Positions 5,829 to 60,783 of a stretch of 64,000 nucleotides of DNA are shown here, one piece after another (the first letter of the stretch is position 1; the number at the start of each line of letters is the position of its first letter). Under the pieces are notes generated by a model, which saw only the letters and a program-made list of their open reading frames with translations, was not told where the DNA came from and did no database searches. This DNA is from an uncultured Candidatus Saccharibacteria bacterium (lineage in GTDB: Bacteria > Patescibacteriota > Saccharimonadia > Saccharimonadales > UBA10212), in NCBI GenBank assembly GCA_964567555.1, contig CAZMNA010000002.1, positions 5,795 to 69,794 of the forward strand, in the 5' to 3' direction. Both the position numbers and the translations under genes were made by a program.

Positions 5829-5867
5829 AAAATAAACAATACCACAAAAAGTGGTATTTGTCTATAC

Positions 5868-5897
5868 TGGCGGGGCATAGAGTCGGATTTCAGAACT
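5868..5897 (-). repeat. tRNA-Asp 3'-end-like direct repeat, copy 3
   Basis: Minus strand AGTTCTGAAATCCGACTCTATGCCCCGCCA, compared with tRNA-Asp GGTTCAAATCCCGTCCGCCCCGCCA. Confidence 0.7.
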
Positions 5898-6034: not shown

Positions 6035-6070
6035 GTGGACATCATACAAAAAATAAGCTCCTTACTCAAA

Positions 6071-6110
6071 GTGCTTATGCTTGGCGGGGCTTAGAGTCGG
6101 ATTTCAGAAC
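6071..6110 (-). repeat. tRNA-Asp 3'-end-like direct repeat, copy 2 (includes 11 nt of tRNA 3' flank)
   Basis: Minus strand GTTCTGAAATCCGACTCTAAGCCCCGCCAAGCATAAGCAC. CCCCGCCAAGCATAAGCA is identical to the end and flank of the genuine tRNA-Asp. Confidence 0.75.
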
Positions 6111-6410: not shown

Positions 6411-6427
6411 GAGCTTAGTATATCAAA

Positions 6428-6468
6428 GTGCTTATGCTTGGCGGGGCATAGAGTCGGATTTTAGAACT
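6428..6468 (-). repeat. tRNA-Asp 3'-end-like direct repeat, copy 1
   Basis: Minus strand AGTTCTAAAATCCGACTCTATGCCCCGCCAAGCATAAGCAC. Confidence 0.75.
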
Positions 6469-31082: not shown

Positions 31083-31102
31083 TTTACTTTAGAAAAGTAG
31101 GC

Positions 31103-31296
31103 AAATTCTTCACGCTTTGGACGGCAAAGCGTAGCAAACCGCCGGGCTGCGTTCAAACTGGAGCGTTCTTTACTTGCTAAAAAGCGGGCCAAGCCGAACT
31201 CCCTGACAGTCAGACATGTGTTTGGCCGCGTTTTTCCAGCTTCGCTTGAACTTCTGTTTGAGCCGATGCCCGGACCCAATTTTTCAGGCTCGAGCA
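31103..31296 (+). repeat. structured repeat family, diverged copy A
   Basis: Aligns along its length with 56515..56700 and 58356..58532, sharing blocks GCAAACCGCCGGGCTGCGTT, AGCGGGCCAAGCCGAAC and CCAGCTTCGCTYGAACTTCTGTTTGAGCCGATGC. Confidence 0.7.
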
Positions 31297-31472
31297 AACG
31301 GAAGGGAGCGAGGAGTGAGCCAAAAGCCCAGAACCGAGGACTGTTTGACCTAGCACCTACCTCTGGTAGGTGCTAGGGAGTCCCGCAGGTTCACTTTTGG
31401 CAAGCGAATAAGCGACCGTCTTTGTTTGCGAATGCCTGAGAGTTTTGGCGCCACCTTTTCGGTAAAAGGTGG

Positions 31473-32426
31473 TTAGTTTGAGTCCATGAAAGCCTGGGTT
31501 TGAGCGGTCATCTCCGCAATTTTGGCAAAGCTCGCTCCGCTGGTAAAAATAGACAGGATATACGTTTTGTTACCAGACGAAACTATACCTACGTCATGGC
31601 GGACATTGCCCAGATCGCCAATTTTATCTGATACATCGCACTGCGGGCAGCCAGCCGGTATGCCGCTGCGGTATATCTGCTGGCTCAGTGCGTCCAAGAT
31701 AAACTGCCGGCTGTCGCTATCAAAAAGATTACCGCTATAAAGCTGGCTTAAGTATTTAGTAGTGTCGGCGGCTGTAGTTACCGGACCGCTGGCTCTATTT
31801 AGAACCGTGCTGGTGAGACCGATAGATTTTAACTGCGTATCAGCCCAGGCCCAACCAACGTAGTCACCCACCGCCAAACCGCAAGCATTATCAGACACTT
31901 TTAGCATGGCGCTCACGCAGTCTTGCACGCTGAGCGTGCGGCTGCCAACCTTAAGCTTGGTGGTAGCCCACTGCGCATAGGGCAATTTTTGGCTAAGTGG
32001 ATACAGAAGTAAAAGTTTATAAATGCTGGCCGAGTTATATACTTGGCCGGCGTTGTAATTGGCTGTCACAAGATCCGTGCCCAAGCCCTGCACACTGACG
32101 GACCACATAACCTGCGGGTGAGACTGCGCAAAGCTAGCAATGATGCCATCCAGGCGGCTGCTTTCGCCAACTACCGGCTGAGTAGTTTGCAAGGTTGGCT
32201 TGAGCTGGAGCGGGCTGGCTACGGTCGTTTGCAGCGACTGGACGCTGGCTTTACTGCTGGTGTGGGCCGATACCTCAGCCTGGAAAATGGCTAGGTTGGC
32301 TGATAGTAAACTGGCCACCAAGACCAGGCCCACATAAATACCGGGTCTTATGCCACGTTTTTTGGCAAGACCTACTCTATACTCATAAGCCAGCTGACGC
32401 TGGCGTCTATAAAATAAGCGCTTCAT
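31473..32426 (-). CDS. membrane-anchored class A beta-lactamase-like / serine hydrolase
   Basis: SxxK (SIYK), SDN (KVSDNAC) and a KTG-like triad (DKIGDLG); N-terminal TM anchor. Confidence 0.7.
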   Translation of the reverse strand: MKRLFYRRQRQLAYEYRVGLAKKRGIRPGIYVGLVLVASLLSANLAIFQAEVSAHTSSKASVQSLQTTVASPLQLKPTLQTTQPVVGESSRLDGIIASFAQSHPQVMWSVSVQGLGTDLVTANYNAGQVYNSASIYKLLLLYPLSQKLPYAQWATTKLKVGSRTLSVQDCVSAMLKVSDNACGLAVGDYVGWAWADTQLKSIGLTSTVLNRASGPVTTAADTTKYLSQLYSGNLFDSDSRQFILDALSQQIYRSGIPAGCPQCDVSDKIGDLGNVRHDVGIVSSGNKTYILSIFTSGASFAKIAEMTAQTQAFMDSN

Positions 32427-32508
32427 TTTAGTTTTTTAAAGCTTTTTGTTTCCCCGAAACCTATTTATAAGAATAAACCACTTAAGCTTAGGCTGGCAAG
32501 GTTAAAAA

Positions 32509-33231
32509 TTATTTTTTTACTGCAATAGGCCGCAAATTATAGAACCGCTCCAGGTTTCCTTTGGCCCCGGATACGTCTGAATCTGCTTTGTCCGTGATGA
32601 CAAACATGCTTTTAGCCCAGTCTTCAAAATCTTTTAGAATCATCCGGCGAAGGCGGTCATTTTTGACCACGCCTTTATGCAAATTTGGTGCACTAGATTC
32701 AAATTGCGGCTTTACCATCGCCACAATCTGCGTACCTGCCCCGCTCATGACCGCTACCGCTGGCAAGATTTCGCGCAGTGAAATAAAACTGACGTCAATA
32801 ACGACAATATCTGGCGTAGCAGCTGGCTTAAAGCTGCGAATATCGGTTTGTTCATGCAGCTCCAGCCGTGAATCATCGCGCAGGCTAGGGTGCATTTGGT
32901 CCGTACCGACATCTACCGCTATAACCTTGGCGGCGCCATGTTTCAGGGCATAATCACTAAAACCGCCAGTGCTGGAACCAACGTCTAGCACCACTTTGTC
33001 TTTGAAGTTAAGCCCTAGTTTGCCGGCCACGCTGGCTAGTTTCAACCCTGCCCGGCTGACATATATTTCGCCGGCTTCAATTTTTATTTTGTCATTAGGC
33101 TCTACCCGCTGGCCTGGTTTAGTGACAACCTGCCCGTTTAGTTTAATCTTGCCAAGCTTAATATAACTCTCCGCCTGGCTACGGCTAGCGACCAATCCCC
33201 GGCCAAAAACGGCTTGGTCTAAACGCATCAT
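32509..33231 (-). CDS. tlyA: TlyA family rRNA (cytidine-2'-O)-methyltransferase
   Basis: N-terminal S4 domain plus FtsJ-type VLDVGSSTGGFSDYAL. Confidence 0.85.
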   Translation of the reverse strand: MMRLDQAVFGRGLVASRSQAESYIKLGKIKLNGQVVTKPGQRVEPNDKIKIEAGEIYVSRAGLKLASVAGKLGLNFKDKVVLDVGSSTGGFSDYALKHGAAKVIAVDVGTDQMHPSLRDDSRLELHEQTDIRSFKPAATPDIVVIDVSFISLREILPAVAVMSGAGTQIVAMVKPQFESSAPNLHKGVVKNDRLRRMILKDFEDWAKSMFVITDKADSDVSGAKGNLERFYNLRPIAVKK

Positions 33232-55799: not shown

Positions 55800-56012
55800 A
55801 TGGTTCAGAAATTAATTAAAATCGGTACCAGCACCGGACTAATTGTGCCTAAAAAGCAGCTCGATGAGTTAGATTTGCGGGCCGGTGATGAAATTGACTT
55901 CACTATTTCCAAGCGAGCAAGCAATACCGTCAAGCATTCCCAACTCCTCAAAGACTTGGAGGGCTTCATGAACACTTACGACCAGGATCTTCAGAATCTA
56001 GCCAAAAGATAA
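55800..56012 (+). CDS. AbrB/MazE/SpoVT-type antitoxin
   Basis: KIGTSTGLIVPKKQLDELDLRAGDEIDF swapped-hairpin motif; its stop overlaps the doc start. Confidence 0.8.
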   Translation: MVQKLIKIGTSTGLIVPKKQLDELDLRAGDEIDFTISKRASNTVKHSQLLKDLEGFMNTYDQDLQNLAKR

Positions 56013-56395
56013 TGAATTACCTATCTGCAGAAGAAATTCTGCTGATTCACTTCATGTTGATCGAGCGCTACGGCGGCTCGCACGGCACACGCGACCTAGA
56101 GCGCATAAAGTCAGCCGCTGTAGCCCCTTCGCAGGAAGTCTTCGGACAAAAACAATACCCGACAGTCTTTGAAAAAGCTGCGGTTTACGCCTGTAATATT
56201 ATTGCTGATCATCCATTCCGAGACGGCAACAAGCGGACAGGGATGGCCACCGCCGCAATGTTTCTAAAAAGAAATGGTTATTTATTCACTGCACCTAAAG
56301 GTAAAGTCGAGGACTTCGCGGTCTATATTGCGGTTAAAAAGCCAGAGGTCTCAGCAGTGGCCGAGTGGTTCAAGAGATACTCCAAGAAAAGTTAG
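56012..56395 (+). CDS. doc: Doc (death-on-curing) toxin, Fic fold kinase
   Basis: HPFRDGNKRTG (Doc-type Fic motif). Confidence 0.85.
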   Translation: MNYLSAEEILLIHFMLIERYGGSHGTRDLERIKSAAVAPSQEVFGQKQYPTVFEKAAVYACNIIADHPFRDGNKRTGMATAAMFLKRNGYLFTAPKGKVEDFAVYIAVKKPEVSAVAEWFKRYSKKS

Positions 56396-56514
56396 CCACC
56401 TAAAAGCCCGCGCCAAAAAATAATTTTCAACCATTTGCTTTTTGGCAAATGCGGGTGTTCTTTTTCAAGCCCACTATGCCGAAGTAGCCTCCGGCTACGA
56501 AGGCTGTAAGAACC

Positions 56515-56691
56515 AAATATTTTCACACTTTGAGCGGCAAAGTGTGGCAAACCGCCGGGCTGCGTTAAAACTGGAGCGTCCAGAGCTCGCTTTAAAAGCG
56601 GGCCAAGCCGAACGCCTTCGCTTTGCTCAGTTAAACATGCGTTTGGCCTCGCCTTTTCCAGCTTCGCTCGAACTTCTGTTTGAGCCGATGC
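56515..56691 (+). repeat. structured repeat family, copy B (177 nt, identical to copy C)
   Basis: Letter-by-letter identical to 58356..58532. Confidence 0.9.
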
Positions 56692-56754
56692 CCGGACCCG
56701 TGGCGCAAAAAGACGTCGAACCAGTAGGATGAGCCAATGTCCGGAGCCAAAAAC

Positions 56755-56792: not shown

Positions 56793-57554
56793 ATGAGCGT
56801 TATAACTATGCCCAAACTGCGGCGGCTAAACCTAATCGCCGGCTTGCTCCACCTGGCCCAAGGCGTGGCAGTACTACTCCTTTCTACCAATTTCAGCTTG
56901 CCTGTTACCGGCGGATATTTAAAATTTAACTCGGCTACAAAACACTTAGACCCGGGCAGTAACACGCTGTTTCATTTGCCCCTACCCTGGCTGGTGGCCA
57001 TCTTTTTCTTCTTGTCCGCCGCCTTCCATTTGGCTATCGCCACGTTTTATAACAAAACTTATGTCGCTAATCTGGCAAAAAATATCAACCGCGCCCGCTG
57101 GTTTGAATATTCGCTGTCGGCCGGTGTCATGATGGTCGCCATCGCGATGCTGGTGGGTATCTACGACGTCATGAGTCTACTGATGATATTTGTGCTGGTA
57201 GCCATAATGAACCTCACCGGCCTCGCCATGGAAGTTTATAACCAAGGCCGACAGAAGGTTAACTGGCTGGCTTACAGGCTCGGCAGTTTGGCCGGCATCG
57301 TGCCCTGGCTGGCGGTGGCTTTTTATATTGGCAACTCCAACCACGTCGGCAGCGGCGCACCGACCTTTGTTTACTTTATTTTTGGCAGCATCTTTATATT
57401 CTTTAGCTGTTTTGCACTCAACATGTACTTGCAGTACAAGTGTATCGGCAAATGGGCAGACTATCTTTACGGCGAAAAGGTCTACATTTGGCTAAGCCTC
57501 ATCGCTAAAAGCTTGCTTGCTTGGCAGGTCTTCGCCGGCACCCTCCGCCCTTAA
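56793..57554 (+). CDS. heliorhodopsin
   Basis: 253 aa, 7 TM. Strong resemblance, from memory of HeR 48C12, to RWVEYSLSSSVM (here RWFEYSLSAGVM), GIVPW (identical) and SLVAKSALAWQIFSGTL (here SLIAKSLLAWQVFAGTL, containing the Schiff-base Lys). Confidence 0.85.
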   Translation: MSVITMPKLRRLNLIAGLLHLAQGVAVLLLSTNFSLPVTGGYLKFNSATKHLDPGSNTLFHLPLPWLVAIFFFLSAAFHLAIATFYNKTYVANLAKNINRARWFEYSLSAGVMMVAIAMLVGIYDVMSLLMIFVLVAIMNLTGLAMEVYNQGRQKVNWLAYRLGSLAGIVPWLAVAFYIGNSNHVGSGAPTFVYFIFGSIFIFFSCFALNMYLQYKCIGKWADYLYGEKVYIWLSLIAKSLLAWQVFAGTLRP

Positions 57555-57564
57555 AACTGCTTGC

Positions 57565-57592
57565 CCCGTCAGATGCTTTTGCATCTTTCGGG
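57565..57592 (+). terminator. hairpin after heliorhodopsin (terminator-like)
   Basis: CCCGTCAGATGC-tttt-GCATCTTTCGGG. A structural homologue with different apical sequence lies at 58588..58615. Confidence 0.45.
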
Positions 57593-57666
57593 TGTATCCC
57601 CCACCCGCTTTTTGGCGTCTGCTTATGCTTGCGCTAAGACATGCAATACCTTAATTTGGTCTAGTA

Positions 57667-58335
57667 ATGGGAATGGTCAATAAAGACAGCTCTGTTAGAC
57701 CTATGCAGGATGAGGCTAGGGATTTGCGTCTATGTGCGGATGGCCGCCATGACTTCGAGGAATTATCCCCCACCCAGCAAATAGCGGCCATAAGAGCCCA
57801 GCATTCGCTTAACGTCATGGATATGCGCGGTCATATAAGTCTGCGCGAGTGTAAAAGGATGTTTGAGTTCGGTGCAGGTACTGGCGGCTCCGGCTTTGTG
57901 TTAGCCCATTTAGCCCTAATTAATGGTGGCTGCGTAGAAGTAGTGGAAATAGAATCAGATAGAGCCAACGACATTGTACAAAGTGGCATCTTGCCGGCAG
58001 AAAGCGTCCACACCGGCGATGGAGTCCAGAGGCTCCAGCAGCTGGAGCGTGTTGGCAAAAAGTTTGATTTAATAGCCGCCTTTATGTTTGGGCCTGATCT
58101 TAGCGGCGCGCGCATAACAAGACTACTGCCCGCAGCGGCTGATGCTCTTGATGACGGGGGCAAATTATTAGTATCCTCAGACCCCGATACAATGCAAGCC
58201 GCCAGGATTGTGTGTGCCGCTAAGGGGATGGAGTTTGGCGATTACTCCCCGCCTCGGCGAACTTATTATCTATACAAGCCGGACAAAGTGGACACGATTG
58301 TAGTCCCTCGGGCAAATATGCCAGCTGGCTTATAA
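57667..58335 (+). CDS. class I SAM-dependent methyltransferase-like protein
   Basis: Motif I FEFGAGTGGSG, acidic beta-2 end VEVVEIE, FDLIAAF, DDGGKLLV. Confidence 0.6.
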   Translation: MGMVNKDSSVRPMQDEARDLRLCADGRHDFEELSPTQQIAAIRAQHSLNVMDMRGHISLRECKRMFEFGAGTGGSGFVLAHLALINGGCVEVVEIESDRANDIVQSGILPAESVHTGDGVQRLQQLERVGKKFDLIAAFMFGPDLSGARITRLLPAAADALDDGGKLLVSSDPDTMQAARIVCAAKGMEFGDYSPPRRTYYLYKPDKVDTIVVPRANMPAGL

Positions 58336-58355: not shown

Positions 58356-58532
58356 AAATATTTTCACACTTTGAGCGGCAAAGTGTGGCAAACCGCCGGG
58401 CTGCGTTAAAACTGGAGCGTCCAGAGCTCGCTTTAAAAGCGGGCCAAGCCGAACGCCTTCGCTTTGCTCAGTTAAACATGCGTTTGGCCTCGCCTTTTCC
58501 AGCTTCGCTCGAACTTCTGTTTGAGCCGATGC
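58356..58532 (+). repeat. structured repeat family, copy C
   Basis: Identical to 56515..56691. The downstream TTCAGGCTCGAGC block is shared with copy A. Confidence 0.9.
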
Positions 58533-58587
58533 TAGGGACCCATTCTTGGTTTCTTCAGGCTCGAGCCAAAAAGCTAGCGCTGCCTGC

Positions 58588-58615: not shown

Positions 58616-58644
58616 TGTATTCCCCACCCCAACAGAGGTATAAT
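58616..58644 (+). promoter_or_regulatory. promoter-like module TGTATT-N17-TATAAT
   Basis: TGTATTCCCCACCCCAACAGAGGTATAAT, directly upstream of the helicase remnant. Confidence 0.45.
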
Positions 58645-58645
58645 T

Positions 58646-58777
58646 GTTAGAACCCGCTCGGGCATAAATGTCAAAGGCATAACGCACGTCATCAACCTTG
58701 ATCCGCCGTAAACCTACGATGATTATATTCACCGTATTGGCCACGCTGGCCGCGCCCTGACCTTCGTAGAACGCTAA
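58646..58777 (+). pseudogene. remnant of a DEAD-box RNA helicase C-terminus
   Basis: Translates to [42 protein letters not shown]. This corresponds to motifs V/VI (ARGID...HVINYDLP...YVHRIGRTGRAG) with an in-frame stop, and the first ~350 codons are absent. Confidence 0.7.
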
Positions 58778-60746: not shown

Positions 60747-60775
60747 TGTATTCCCCACCCCAACCAAAGTATAAT
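60747..60775 (+). promoter_or_regulatory. promoter-like module TGTATT-N17-TATAAT
   Basis: TGTATTCCCCACCCCAACCAAAGTATAAT, with the ATG 8 nt downstream (leaderless-type). Confidence 0.5.
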
Positions 60776-60783
60776 TGCAGCAA

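Follow-up and report, generated by a model that had tools for sequence, protein, structure and literature searches.

Among the repeats described in bacterial genomes, two kinds come closest to the element considered here: the repetitive extragenic palindromic sequences (REPs), with the bacterial interspersed mosaic elements (BIMEs), and the miniature inverted-repeat transposable elements (MITEs). Both MITEs and REPs fold into long stem-loops; the former carry terminal inverted repeats and target duplications, and the latter show a bias to convergent gene pairs and an effect on mRNA stability (PMC3184786). The present analysis deals with a structured repeat of about 180-200 nt (individual units of 175-233 nt) found in a 64,000-nt stretch of DNA from an uncultured Candidatus Saccharibacteria bacterium (contig CAZMNA010000002.1 of assembly GCA_964567555.1, positions 5,795 to 69,794; hereafter the window), where one copy, copy A, lies directly behind the ychF gene. 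Saccharibacteria and other bacteria of the candidate phyla radiation (CPR) have streamlined genomes with almost no intergenic DNA. The non-coding, palindromic and intergenic character of the element, its multiple copies, its shortened derivatives, its mixed-type inverted pairs and its genome-specific variants make an interspersed repeat the best fit, and we lean towards placing the family among the non-coding, structure-conserving interspersed repeats of the general REP/BIME, ERIC and MITE kind, in a form not described before.

Three direct copies in the window, A, B and C (coordinates are collected in Table 1), were recovered by repeat finding, MAFFT alignment and blastn, which upholds the three-copy family proposed by an earlier reading of this DNA made from its letters and open reading frames (ORFs), referred to below as the sequence-only reading. 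Copies A and B are 81.7% identical over 186 nt (blastn E 6e-46), far more than chance would give, and B and C share 99% identity over 180 nt (56512-56691 on the side of B); the 3' arm of one stem, P2, is changed in copy C and reads GCTAGGG in place of GCCCGG. Copy A starts 20 nt past the stop of ychF, copy C starts 21 nt past the stop of a gene for a methyltransferase-like protein of 222 aa, and copy B starts about 120 nt past doc. A fourth, diverged copy, A', lies next to A on the opposite strand, and beyond these four none was detectable in the window with a covariance model or an nhmmer profile.

The element is non-coding. Gene callers set an ORF of 96 aa on copy B and another of 108 aa on copy C, and among 5.8 billion proteins the sole homologue of the former was the latter. 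The lack of any outside homologue, together with the indels of 1, 7 and 1 nt that separate A from B, argues against a coding function, and the earlier statement that no frame is conserved was essentially right. Phage, plasmid and viral collections, covered by three pattern scans of viral contigs and by blastn, held nothing related to the element and no insertion sequence with the same ends; the 16-mer matches in the viral scans fail the covariance model and are attributed to chance. Neither a known insertion sequence end nor a protein-coding pseudogene, which the sequence-only reading had named as possible alternative identities, turned up in the coding or in the phage, plasmid and viral comparisons.

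Exact protein matches put the window on a JGI contig of 100 kb from a peat or rhizosphere metagenome, and the genes found there are those usual in Saccharibacteria. Related copies were sought by scanning for short patterns. A 20-mer scan of 185,579 species genomes gave one match that extended, in an uncultured Saccharibacteria genome (L007), the two other matches being due to chance, and a 19-mer scan of metagenome contigs picked out six of similar composition in which the match extended (L008, L009, L011, L013, L019 and L020). A dozen matches of 19-20 nt outside contigs of the Saccharibacteria type (in Saliniramus, Stutzerimonas, TARA and others) did not extend past the pattern and were rejected as chance. 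The covariance model, built from five full copies and used to pick up more diverged members, added E2 (L009, 127 bits), F' (L011, 30 bits), G (L008) and I (L019), as well as a 5'-only fragment (L019 6810-6744) and a tail-only copy (L013), and ten full-length copies were found in all. Copies related to those of the window were found solely in contigs of the Saccharibacteria type, namely L007/L020, L009 (two), L011 (two), L008, L013 and L019, all of a narrow Saccharibacteria clade of the CPR sampled in peat, rhizosphere and soil metagenomes. Below, type I denotes the sequence subfamily that includes A and F, and A', F', E2 and I are diverged copies.

Several observations in this collection are of the sort made on mobile or duplicating repeats. 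Copies A, B and C have common variants that are missing from the copies of other genomes. One mini-copy in L013 has lost its interior, so that 15 nt from the 5' end run directly into 35 nt from the 3' end, tail-only pieces of 25-45 nt lie in promoter-side regions (L013; L001/L019), and copy I is followed by two more tail fragments, one of them type I-like and the other A'-like. Three contigs (L043-L045) end within A/A' (window 31240-31480) and one of them turns E-like near its end; such ends are typical of a repeat that breaks assemblies, and chimeric joins can arise there.

The sequence-only reading had regarded the 370 nt behind ychF, free of ORFs and rich in hairpins, as one feature headed by copy A, and this description had to be replaced. 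The two additional hairpins that it had pointed out, one of 12 bp (31350-31376) and the other CCACCTTTT-cggt-AAAAGGTGG (31451-31472), do exist; since the latter is the P1 hairpin of A' and the former the tip of its rod, the region is a tail-to-tail pair, composed of copy A and the inverted, diverged A', each behind one of two convergent genes. The first bases of A' overlap the TAA stop (31473-31475) of a gene for a beta-lactamase-like protein, and its P1 begins one base past this stop. The match of A' to the covariance model is modest (16.2 bits, E 0.035-0.08), its 5' half aligns locally with E and E2 at a z of about 18 against shuffles, and folded alone it forms P1 plus the rod at -81.7 kcal/mol (z -6.6); the nhmmer match of A' (E 2.9e-20) is circular, A' itself being in that profile. 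The same layout is seen in L011, where F' lies behind rpmA and F on the opposite strand, and both pairs, A/A' and F'/F, join a type I copy with a diverged type.

The unit is built of two parts. The 5' part comprises, in order, an optional weak CUUU/AAAG mini-hairpin (P0), an A/U-rich leader, P1, which is a hairpin of 9 bp, and the linker CAAA(A)C(U/C)C, which is single-stranded; the 3' part is an imperfect palindrome of about 140 nt that folds into a single long rod, P2-P3-P4-P5-P6, with a variable tip. The helices of the rod are P2 (CCGGGC/GCCCGG), P3 (GUUCAAA/UUUGAGC) and P4 (CAGAG-G-ACU/AGU-C-UUCUG), followed by P5 (GCCAAAAAG/CUUUUUGGC) and P6 (GGCCAAGC/GUUUGGCC). P1 was found without the rod, as 23 nt alone, only in one shortened copy. 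The mini-hairpin is common to A and E nearly base for base, despite the different genes and genomes: the 16 nt of the probable 5' extension of A also precede, with one change, copy E behind clpC in L009, and CTTT..AAAG mini-hairpins occur likewise 5' of D, of E2 and of the 5' fragment in L019.

Much of the folding proposed from the sequence alone survives in this model. P1 reads as had been given, ACGCTTTG-gacgg-CAAAGCGT in A and CACACTTTG-agcgg-CAAAGTGTG in B and C, and the compensatory double change from A:T to G:C is real, further copies adding C:G and other variants at the same or neighbouring pairs. The GGCCAA/TTGGCC stem is present and invariant. The local hairpin CTYGAAC-ttct-GTTTGAG does form in the three direct copies of the window, but over the family as a whole it has no support (78.8% paired against 75.8% in shuffles, and no covariation); it gave way to the long-range helix P3, in which GTTCAAAC pairs with GTTTGAGC and which runs on into CAGAG/TTCTG. 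The minimum-energy fold of copy A is P1 plus the rod (z -2.6 to -3.8), and 8 of the 11 copies folded singly (A, D, E, F, E2, F', I and A') give P1 and a rod closed by P2/P3, with z of -3.8 to -6.6 against dinucleotide shuffles; of the other three, B and C prefer local hairpins and G is not significant (z -1.4).

The pairing is kept through extensive sequence change, as both the covariance alignment and the folds indicate, and the view of the element as a non-coding structured repeat is thus borne out. In the alignment fitted to the covariance model 91% of cells are paired and 40 of the 48 pairs are altered on both sides, a level reached by none of 500 shuffles, while controls with slid partners gave 30-53%. 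The comparison of type I with E2 does not depend on the model, its register being fixed by conserved anchors: P3 changes from GUUCAAAC/GUUUGAGC in type I to CUGAGAAAC/GUUUCUCAG in E2, P5 from the type I arms to GUUUUUAAG/CUUAAAAAC, and P2 from CCGGGC/GCCCGG to UCGGC/GCCGA, with one pair lost on both sides. F' carries CUGAAAAAC/GUUUUUCAG as P3 and a P4 that is wholly different yet fully paired, and in both A' and F' the P6 tip is swapped for unrelated GC-rich hairpins. Two single-stranded motifs, the linker and the apical GC(C/G)GAACUCC, are kept across the subfamilies.

Table 1. Positions of the repeat copies, their stems and the neighbouring features in the window
Feature	Position	Strand	Remarks
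Copy A, probable 5' extension	31087..31102	+	CTTTAGAAAAGTAGGC; weak hairpin CTTT-aga-AAAG (P0); predicted boundary
Copy A	31103-31278	+	covariance-model match 185.7 bits, E 2e-43
Copy A, P1	31112-31119/31125-31132		
Copy A, P2	31142-31147/31268-31273		
Copy A, P3	31151-31157/31257-31263		
Copy A, P4	31159-31163/31252-31256		
Copy A, P5	31176-31184/31231-31240		
Copy A, P6	31187-31194/31220-31227		
Copy A'	31279..31480	- (31480 to 31279)	diverged fourth member, tail-to-tail with A
Copy A', P1	31472-31451		
Copy A', apical 12-bp hairpin	31376-31350		
Copy A', P2 arms	31438-31434 and 31289-31285		
Beta-lactamase-like gene	31473-32426	-	PF13354
doc	56012-56395		Fic/DOC domain
Copy B	56516-56700	+	covariance-model match 164.5 bits; 92 nt before the heliorhodopsin gene
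Two-gene accessory cassette	56793..58335	+	between the near-identical direct copies B and C
Heliorhodopsin gene	56793-57554	+	PF18761, E 2e-91
222-aa methyltransferase-like gene	57667-58335	+	only 3 relatives among 5.8 billion proteins
Copy C	58357-58542	+	covariance-model match 147.5 bits
Inverted A'-type 3'-tail remnant	58554..58569	-	plus strand TTCAGGCTCGAGCCAA; compare 31283-31298 beside A; tentative, short

The placement of the copies was compared across the family. Convergent genes flank A/A', D, E and F'/F. Co-directional genes surround B, C and E2, each of which is sense to them; G follows a plus-strand gene, its contig ending inside the copy; and the genes on either side of copy I diverge, the copy being 5' of a gene and sense to the gene downstream. 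The claim that the element always stands just 3' of a plus-strand gene holds for A, B and C, but it does not extend to the family, in which copy I is 5' of a gene and tail fragments are on the promoter side. The unit starts 0-30 nt past a stop codon in A, A', C, D, E, F' and G. In a compact genome, neighbouring convergent genes usually touch or overlap, so that an insertion surviving between them sits beside a stop codon and can hardly avoid being sense to one of the two and close behind it; only the co-directional copies B, C and E2 are therefore informative on orientation. Neighbours include core genes (ychF, clpC and rpmA) as well as accessory ones (doc, the beta-lactamase-like gene and an ORF of 169 aa in L009).

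The interval behind ychF was compared with that of relatives. At five loci around four of the closest YchF relatives (70-76% identical) no element was found after ychF or elsewhere. Between ychF and its convergent neighbour the window has 390 nt, whereas in L026 and L029 the two genes overlap by 4 nt and in the other relatives the gap is 66-90 nt; different genes lie between ychF and tlyA in these relatives, and the interval is thus variable. In L026-L030 the interval between ychF and tlyA (S4 plus FtsJ) is occupied by a bPH_3 gene, in most cases together with a Crp-like regulator, and intergenic DNA is scarce or absent; in the window (31083-33231) the same interval holds the beta-lactamase-like gene and the 390 nt of repeat. 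The shortened, tail-only and divergent-region copies, together with the absence after ychF in relatives, point to a duplicative repeat rather than to single-copy functional genes.

The likeness to described repeats is of several kinds. As with REP, BIME and REPIN elements of proteobacteria, the copies are interspersed, non-coding and palindromic, and most of them stand behind genes or between convergent genes. The pairs A/A' and F'/F recall the Y/Z REP pairs of BIMEs, in which different sub-types are inverted around a short linker, and folding in the 3' untranslated region (3'-UTR) is to be expected, where REPs stabilise mRNA (PMC3184786). Unlike REPs, the unit is 180-200 nt long and made of two modules, P1 and the 140-nt rod, instead of a GC-rich stem-loop of 20-40 nt; as far as seen there are few copies per 64 kb, against hundreds per genome; and the annotated genes of the 64 kb and of the short loci include no RAYT (IS200/IS605-like TnpA), the host being a CPR bacterium. 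MITE-type elements (ERIC/IRU, Correia, RUP and Nezha) are likewise 100-400 bp long, have no transposase gene, form a long stable stem-loop, lie in intergenic regions and have internally deleted or truncated derivatives (PMC3184786), and our element agrees in its size, in the absence of conserved ORFs, in its stem-loop and in its multiplicity, with four copies in the window. It differs in that the arms are not terminal, that neither a target-site duplication nor a parent insertion sequence was found, and that its subfamilies have diverged almost fully in sequence yet kept their pairing. Derivatives of IS200/IS605 elements (PATE, solo omega RNA) do not fit, as P1 shares no sequence similarity with the 3' region, and there is no TnpA or TnpB domain among the annotated neighbours and no match to HEARO (RF02033).

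If the family is indeed an interspersed repeat, the unit would multiply within genomes, either by transposition in trans or by recombination and duplication, and would persist at those few places between genes that a compact genome can spare, for the most part right behind stop codons. The hairpin shape would be the conserved feature, needed for propagation or useful when co-transcribed in a 3'-UTR. There it could block 3' exonucleases, or terminate or insulate transcription between convergent genes, as for REP/BIME; the stabilising or terminating role is putative and drawn by analogy with those elements. Rearrangement could in addition use the copies as stretches of homology, and the heliorhodopsin cassette flanked by B and C would be an example.

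A number of observations weigh against this interpretation. The inverted arms CCGGGC..GTTCAAAC and GTTTGAGC..GCCCGG exist, but they are not terminal: about 40 nt of the unit, with P1 and the linker, precede the left arm of the palindrome, and all subfamilies have these two parts in the unit. When the flanks were read directly, no consistent target-site duplication appeared (none in B, C or E), the unit ends being inexact; the flanks are A/T-rich in A, D and F, with AAAT(A)TT on the left and AAT(A)TT on the right. No close relative offers an empty site that would fix the insertion ends, the relatives having YchF identities of 70-76% and different neighbours. An identical A/A' is present in 9 of the 9 assemblies of the population of the window, as far as each extends, which leaves mobility putative, and no gene for a transposase, a RAYT-type protein or an integrase was seen near any copy, with about 33 of the 61 ORFs of the window annotated. 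The strongest covariation figures rest on the fitted alignment; when the five type I copies are taken by themselves and aligned on sequence only, pairing in the stems is 91% and most of it invariant, so the covariation signal stems from comparing subfamilies. Finally, the very diverged copies A', F' and I are still about 85-95% paired, which exceeds what neutral decay predicts and favours selection on the structure at each locus.

This last point leads to the alternative that survives best, which we hold to be possible, albeit tentative: a dedicated functional RNA under selection at each locus, either a cis-acting 3'-UTR module (a stabiliser, a terminator or a processing or localisation signal) or a small RNA derived from a 3'-UTR, with the single-stranded CAAAACUCUC linker and the C/U-rich apical loop as recognition sites. 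Pairing that persists in A', F', E2 and I although nearly all of their sequence has turned over, and the conservation of both single-stranded motifs across subfamilies, are what such an RNA would be expected to display, and every informative co-directional copy (B, C, E2) is sense, copy I being sense to its downstream gene; the regular start of the unit close behind stop codons agrees as well. The shortened, internally deleted and tail-only copies, the one full copy 5' of a gene in a divergent region and the missing element after ychF in relatives are hard to reconcile with it. The unit ends showed neither a conserved promoter nor a conserved U-tract terminator, a consensus scan there doing no better than shuffles; P1 is followed by GCAAACC or CGCCAAA with no immediate U-tract, which does not make a Rho-independent terminator, and a U-run stands behind the rod in A alone, 6 nt away. 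As for the strand, three G:U pairs are conserved across type I copies of different genomes, and on the sense strand G:U cells outnumber A:C cells by 41 to 16, which weakly favours sense, an excess inflated by the RNA-scored alignment and by shared ancestry, but fold energies are equal or better on the antisense strand, without sense asymmetry. The element may act as RNA or as single-stranded DNA, and all three roles that the sequence-only reading had suggested, a 3'-UTR element, a small RNA gene and a recombination site, are putative.

Nor does a described RNA offer itself. The sequence-only reading had matched the element to no RNA family, and this held: at the gathering thresholds of Rfam 15 the whole window gave four tRNAs and nothing else, and with the limit relaxed to E 10 for A/A' and to E 1 for five other loci only chance-level matches appeared. 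Rfam families such as 6S RNA, HEARO/omega RNA and the group II intron domains are comparable in their length of about 180 nt and in a rod fold with covariation; the element differs from them in having no match at the gathering threshold and in being multi-copy with decayed copies, not a single-copy housekeeping RNA. Domain V of group II introns was considered, as GAGCCGAU resembles it, yet the partner strand is missing and Rfam gives no match, and this candidate was rejected. Literature searches on repeats and structured RNAs in Saccharibacteria and the CPR yielded nothing relevant. A class new in itself, be it a structured RNA of the CPR with a 5' hairpin, a CAAAACUCUC linker and a 140-nt rod with a C/U-rich tip, which selection would maintain at every locus for work in 3'-UTRs or as a processed small RNA, or a hairpin-dependent non-autonomous mobile element without terminal repeats or target duplications, appears to us rather doubtful, though conceivable.

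An unlikely explanation is a site-specific recombination site that marks cassette boundaries, recognised as a folded single-stranded hairpin like the attC sites of integrons. With attC the element shares the conservation of structure over sequence, a rod-like imperfect palindrome with a variable tip, and a location at the 3' ends of genes; the near-identical direct copies B and C bracket the accessory cassette of the heliorhodopsin and methyltransferase-like genes, neighbours are often accessory or defence genes (doc, the beta-lactamase-like gene, the 169-aa ORF of L009), and traces of rearrangement lie beside C. The earlier suggestion that copies mark the boundaries of variable cassettes stands in so far as B and C flank this cassette, while a role as recombination site remains putative. 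At the base of the stem, however, there are no RYYYAAC/GTTRRRY cores (R''/R') but CCGGGC/GCCCGG, and the internal AAAC/GTTT box reads GTTCAAA, GTTAAAA or GTTTGAG, not GTTRRRY; the extra 5' hairpin module sets the element further apart from attC. The annotated neighbourhoods contain no integrase and no attI, copies follow the housekeeping genes ychF, clpC and rpmA, and they form convergent pairs and single copies 25 kb apart instead of co-oriented arrays, while the identity of B and C is explicable by duplication or gene conversion. Weakest of all, and largely refuted already, is the idea that the element is what remains of a protein-coding gene, or else the end of a known insertion sequence. 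The ORFs called across B and C and a short stretch, FPASLELLFEPMPGP, that is in frame between A and B/C would speak for it, but substitutions track base-pairing rather than codons and the comparisons above leave it hardly credible.

The surroundings of B and C deserve a closer description. The cassette between them looks as if it had been gained or duplicated by recombination between element copies; a homologue of the methyltransferase-like gene lies 1.3 kb away from copy D in L007/L020. Behind copy C, a probable tail remnant of 16 nt was seen in the alignment of the A and C flanks and by direct reading. Between C and bipA (window 58640-58777) the C-terminal end of a DEAD-box-type helicase survives as a relic of 47 residues with an in-frame TAA; it matches the Helicase_C profile at positions 77-109 (E 6e-7), and the remaining gene is gone. 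The altered tail of C, the inverted tail remnant and the helicase relic look like a rearrangement scar.

Some further observations concern DNA near the copies. In two contigs the start codon of a DUF2779 gene is directly preceded by a perfect 25-nt piece of the 3' tail, CTTGAACTTCTGTTTGAGCCGATG, in inverted orientation, at L001 19540-19564 (about 4.3 kb past the right end of the window) and at L019 1637-1661, and this fragment may have been reused as a 5' leader. In L009 (5951-7243), E on the plus strand and E2 on the minus strand stand tail to tail around two minus-strand genes, and the 169-aa ORF there contains, as read by eye, an RNECAH motif that resembles the Rx4-6H signature of HEPN proteins. 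A short motif, TTTCGGGTGTAT(T/C)CCCCACCC, is repeated in intergenic regions of the window at 57584-57606, 58616-58640 and 60747-60777; one of its copies is terminator-like behind the heliorhodopsin gene (a hairpin followed by CTTTTT), and another stands right before a TATAAT box upstream of bipA. Elsewhere in the window, a 45-nt motif (..TGGCGGGGCATAGAGTCGGATTTCAGAAC) occurs three times (5852-5896, 6066-6110 and 6423-6467); on a quick reading its copies seem to lie upstream of short minus-strand ORFs resembling small membrane proteins, and it may be a common promoter or leader of a small set of paralogous genes.

A repeat of 180 nt that fills whole intergenic regions stands out in such compact genomes, the 390 nt after ychF being found where the genes of relatives overlap. 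For practical purposes, the repeat breaks metagenome assemblies, and the spurious "proteins" of 96 and 108 aa are currently annotated on B and C by gene callers. The element could mark the shuffling of accessory genes in these episymbionts, among them the heliorhodopsin gene, a toxin-antitoxin pair and the beta-lactamase-like gene. Should either form of the new class be true, the host, with a genome probably under 1 Mb, would be paying an unusually high price for it, as a passenger or as a tool, and if the fold acts in RNA, the family would be among the very few lineage-specific structured RNAs known from this radiation.

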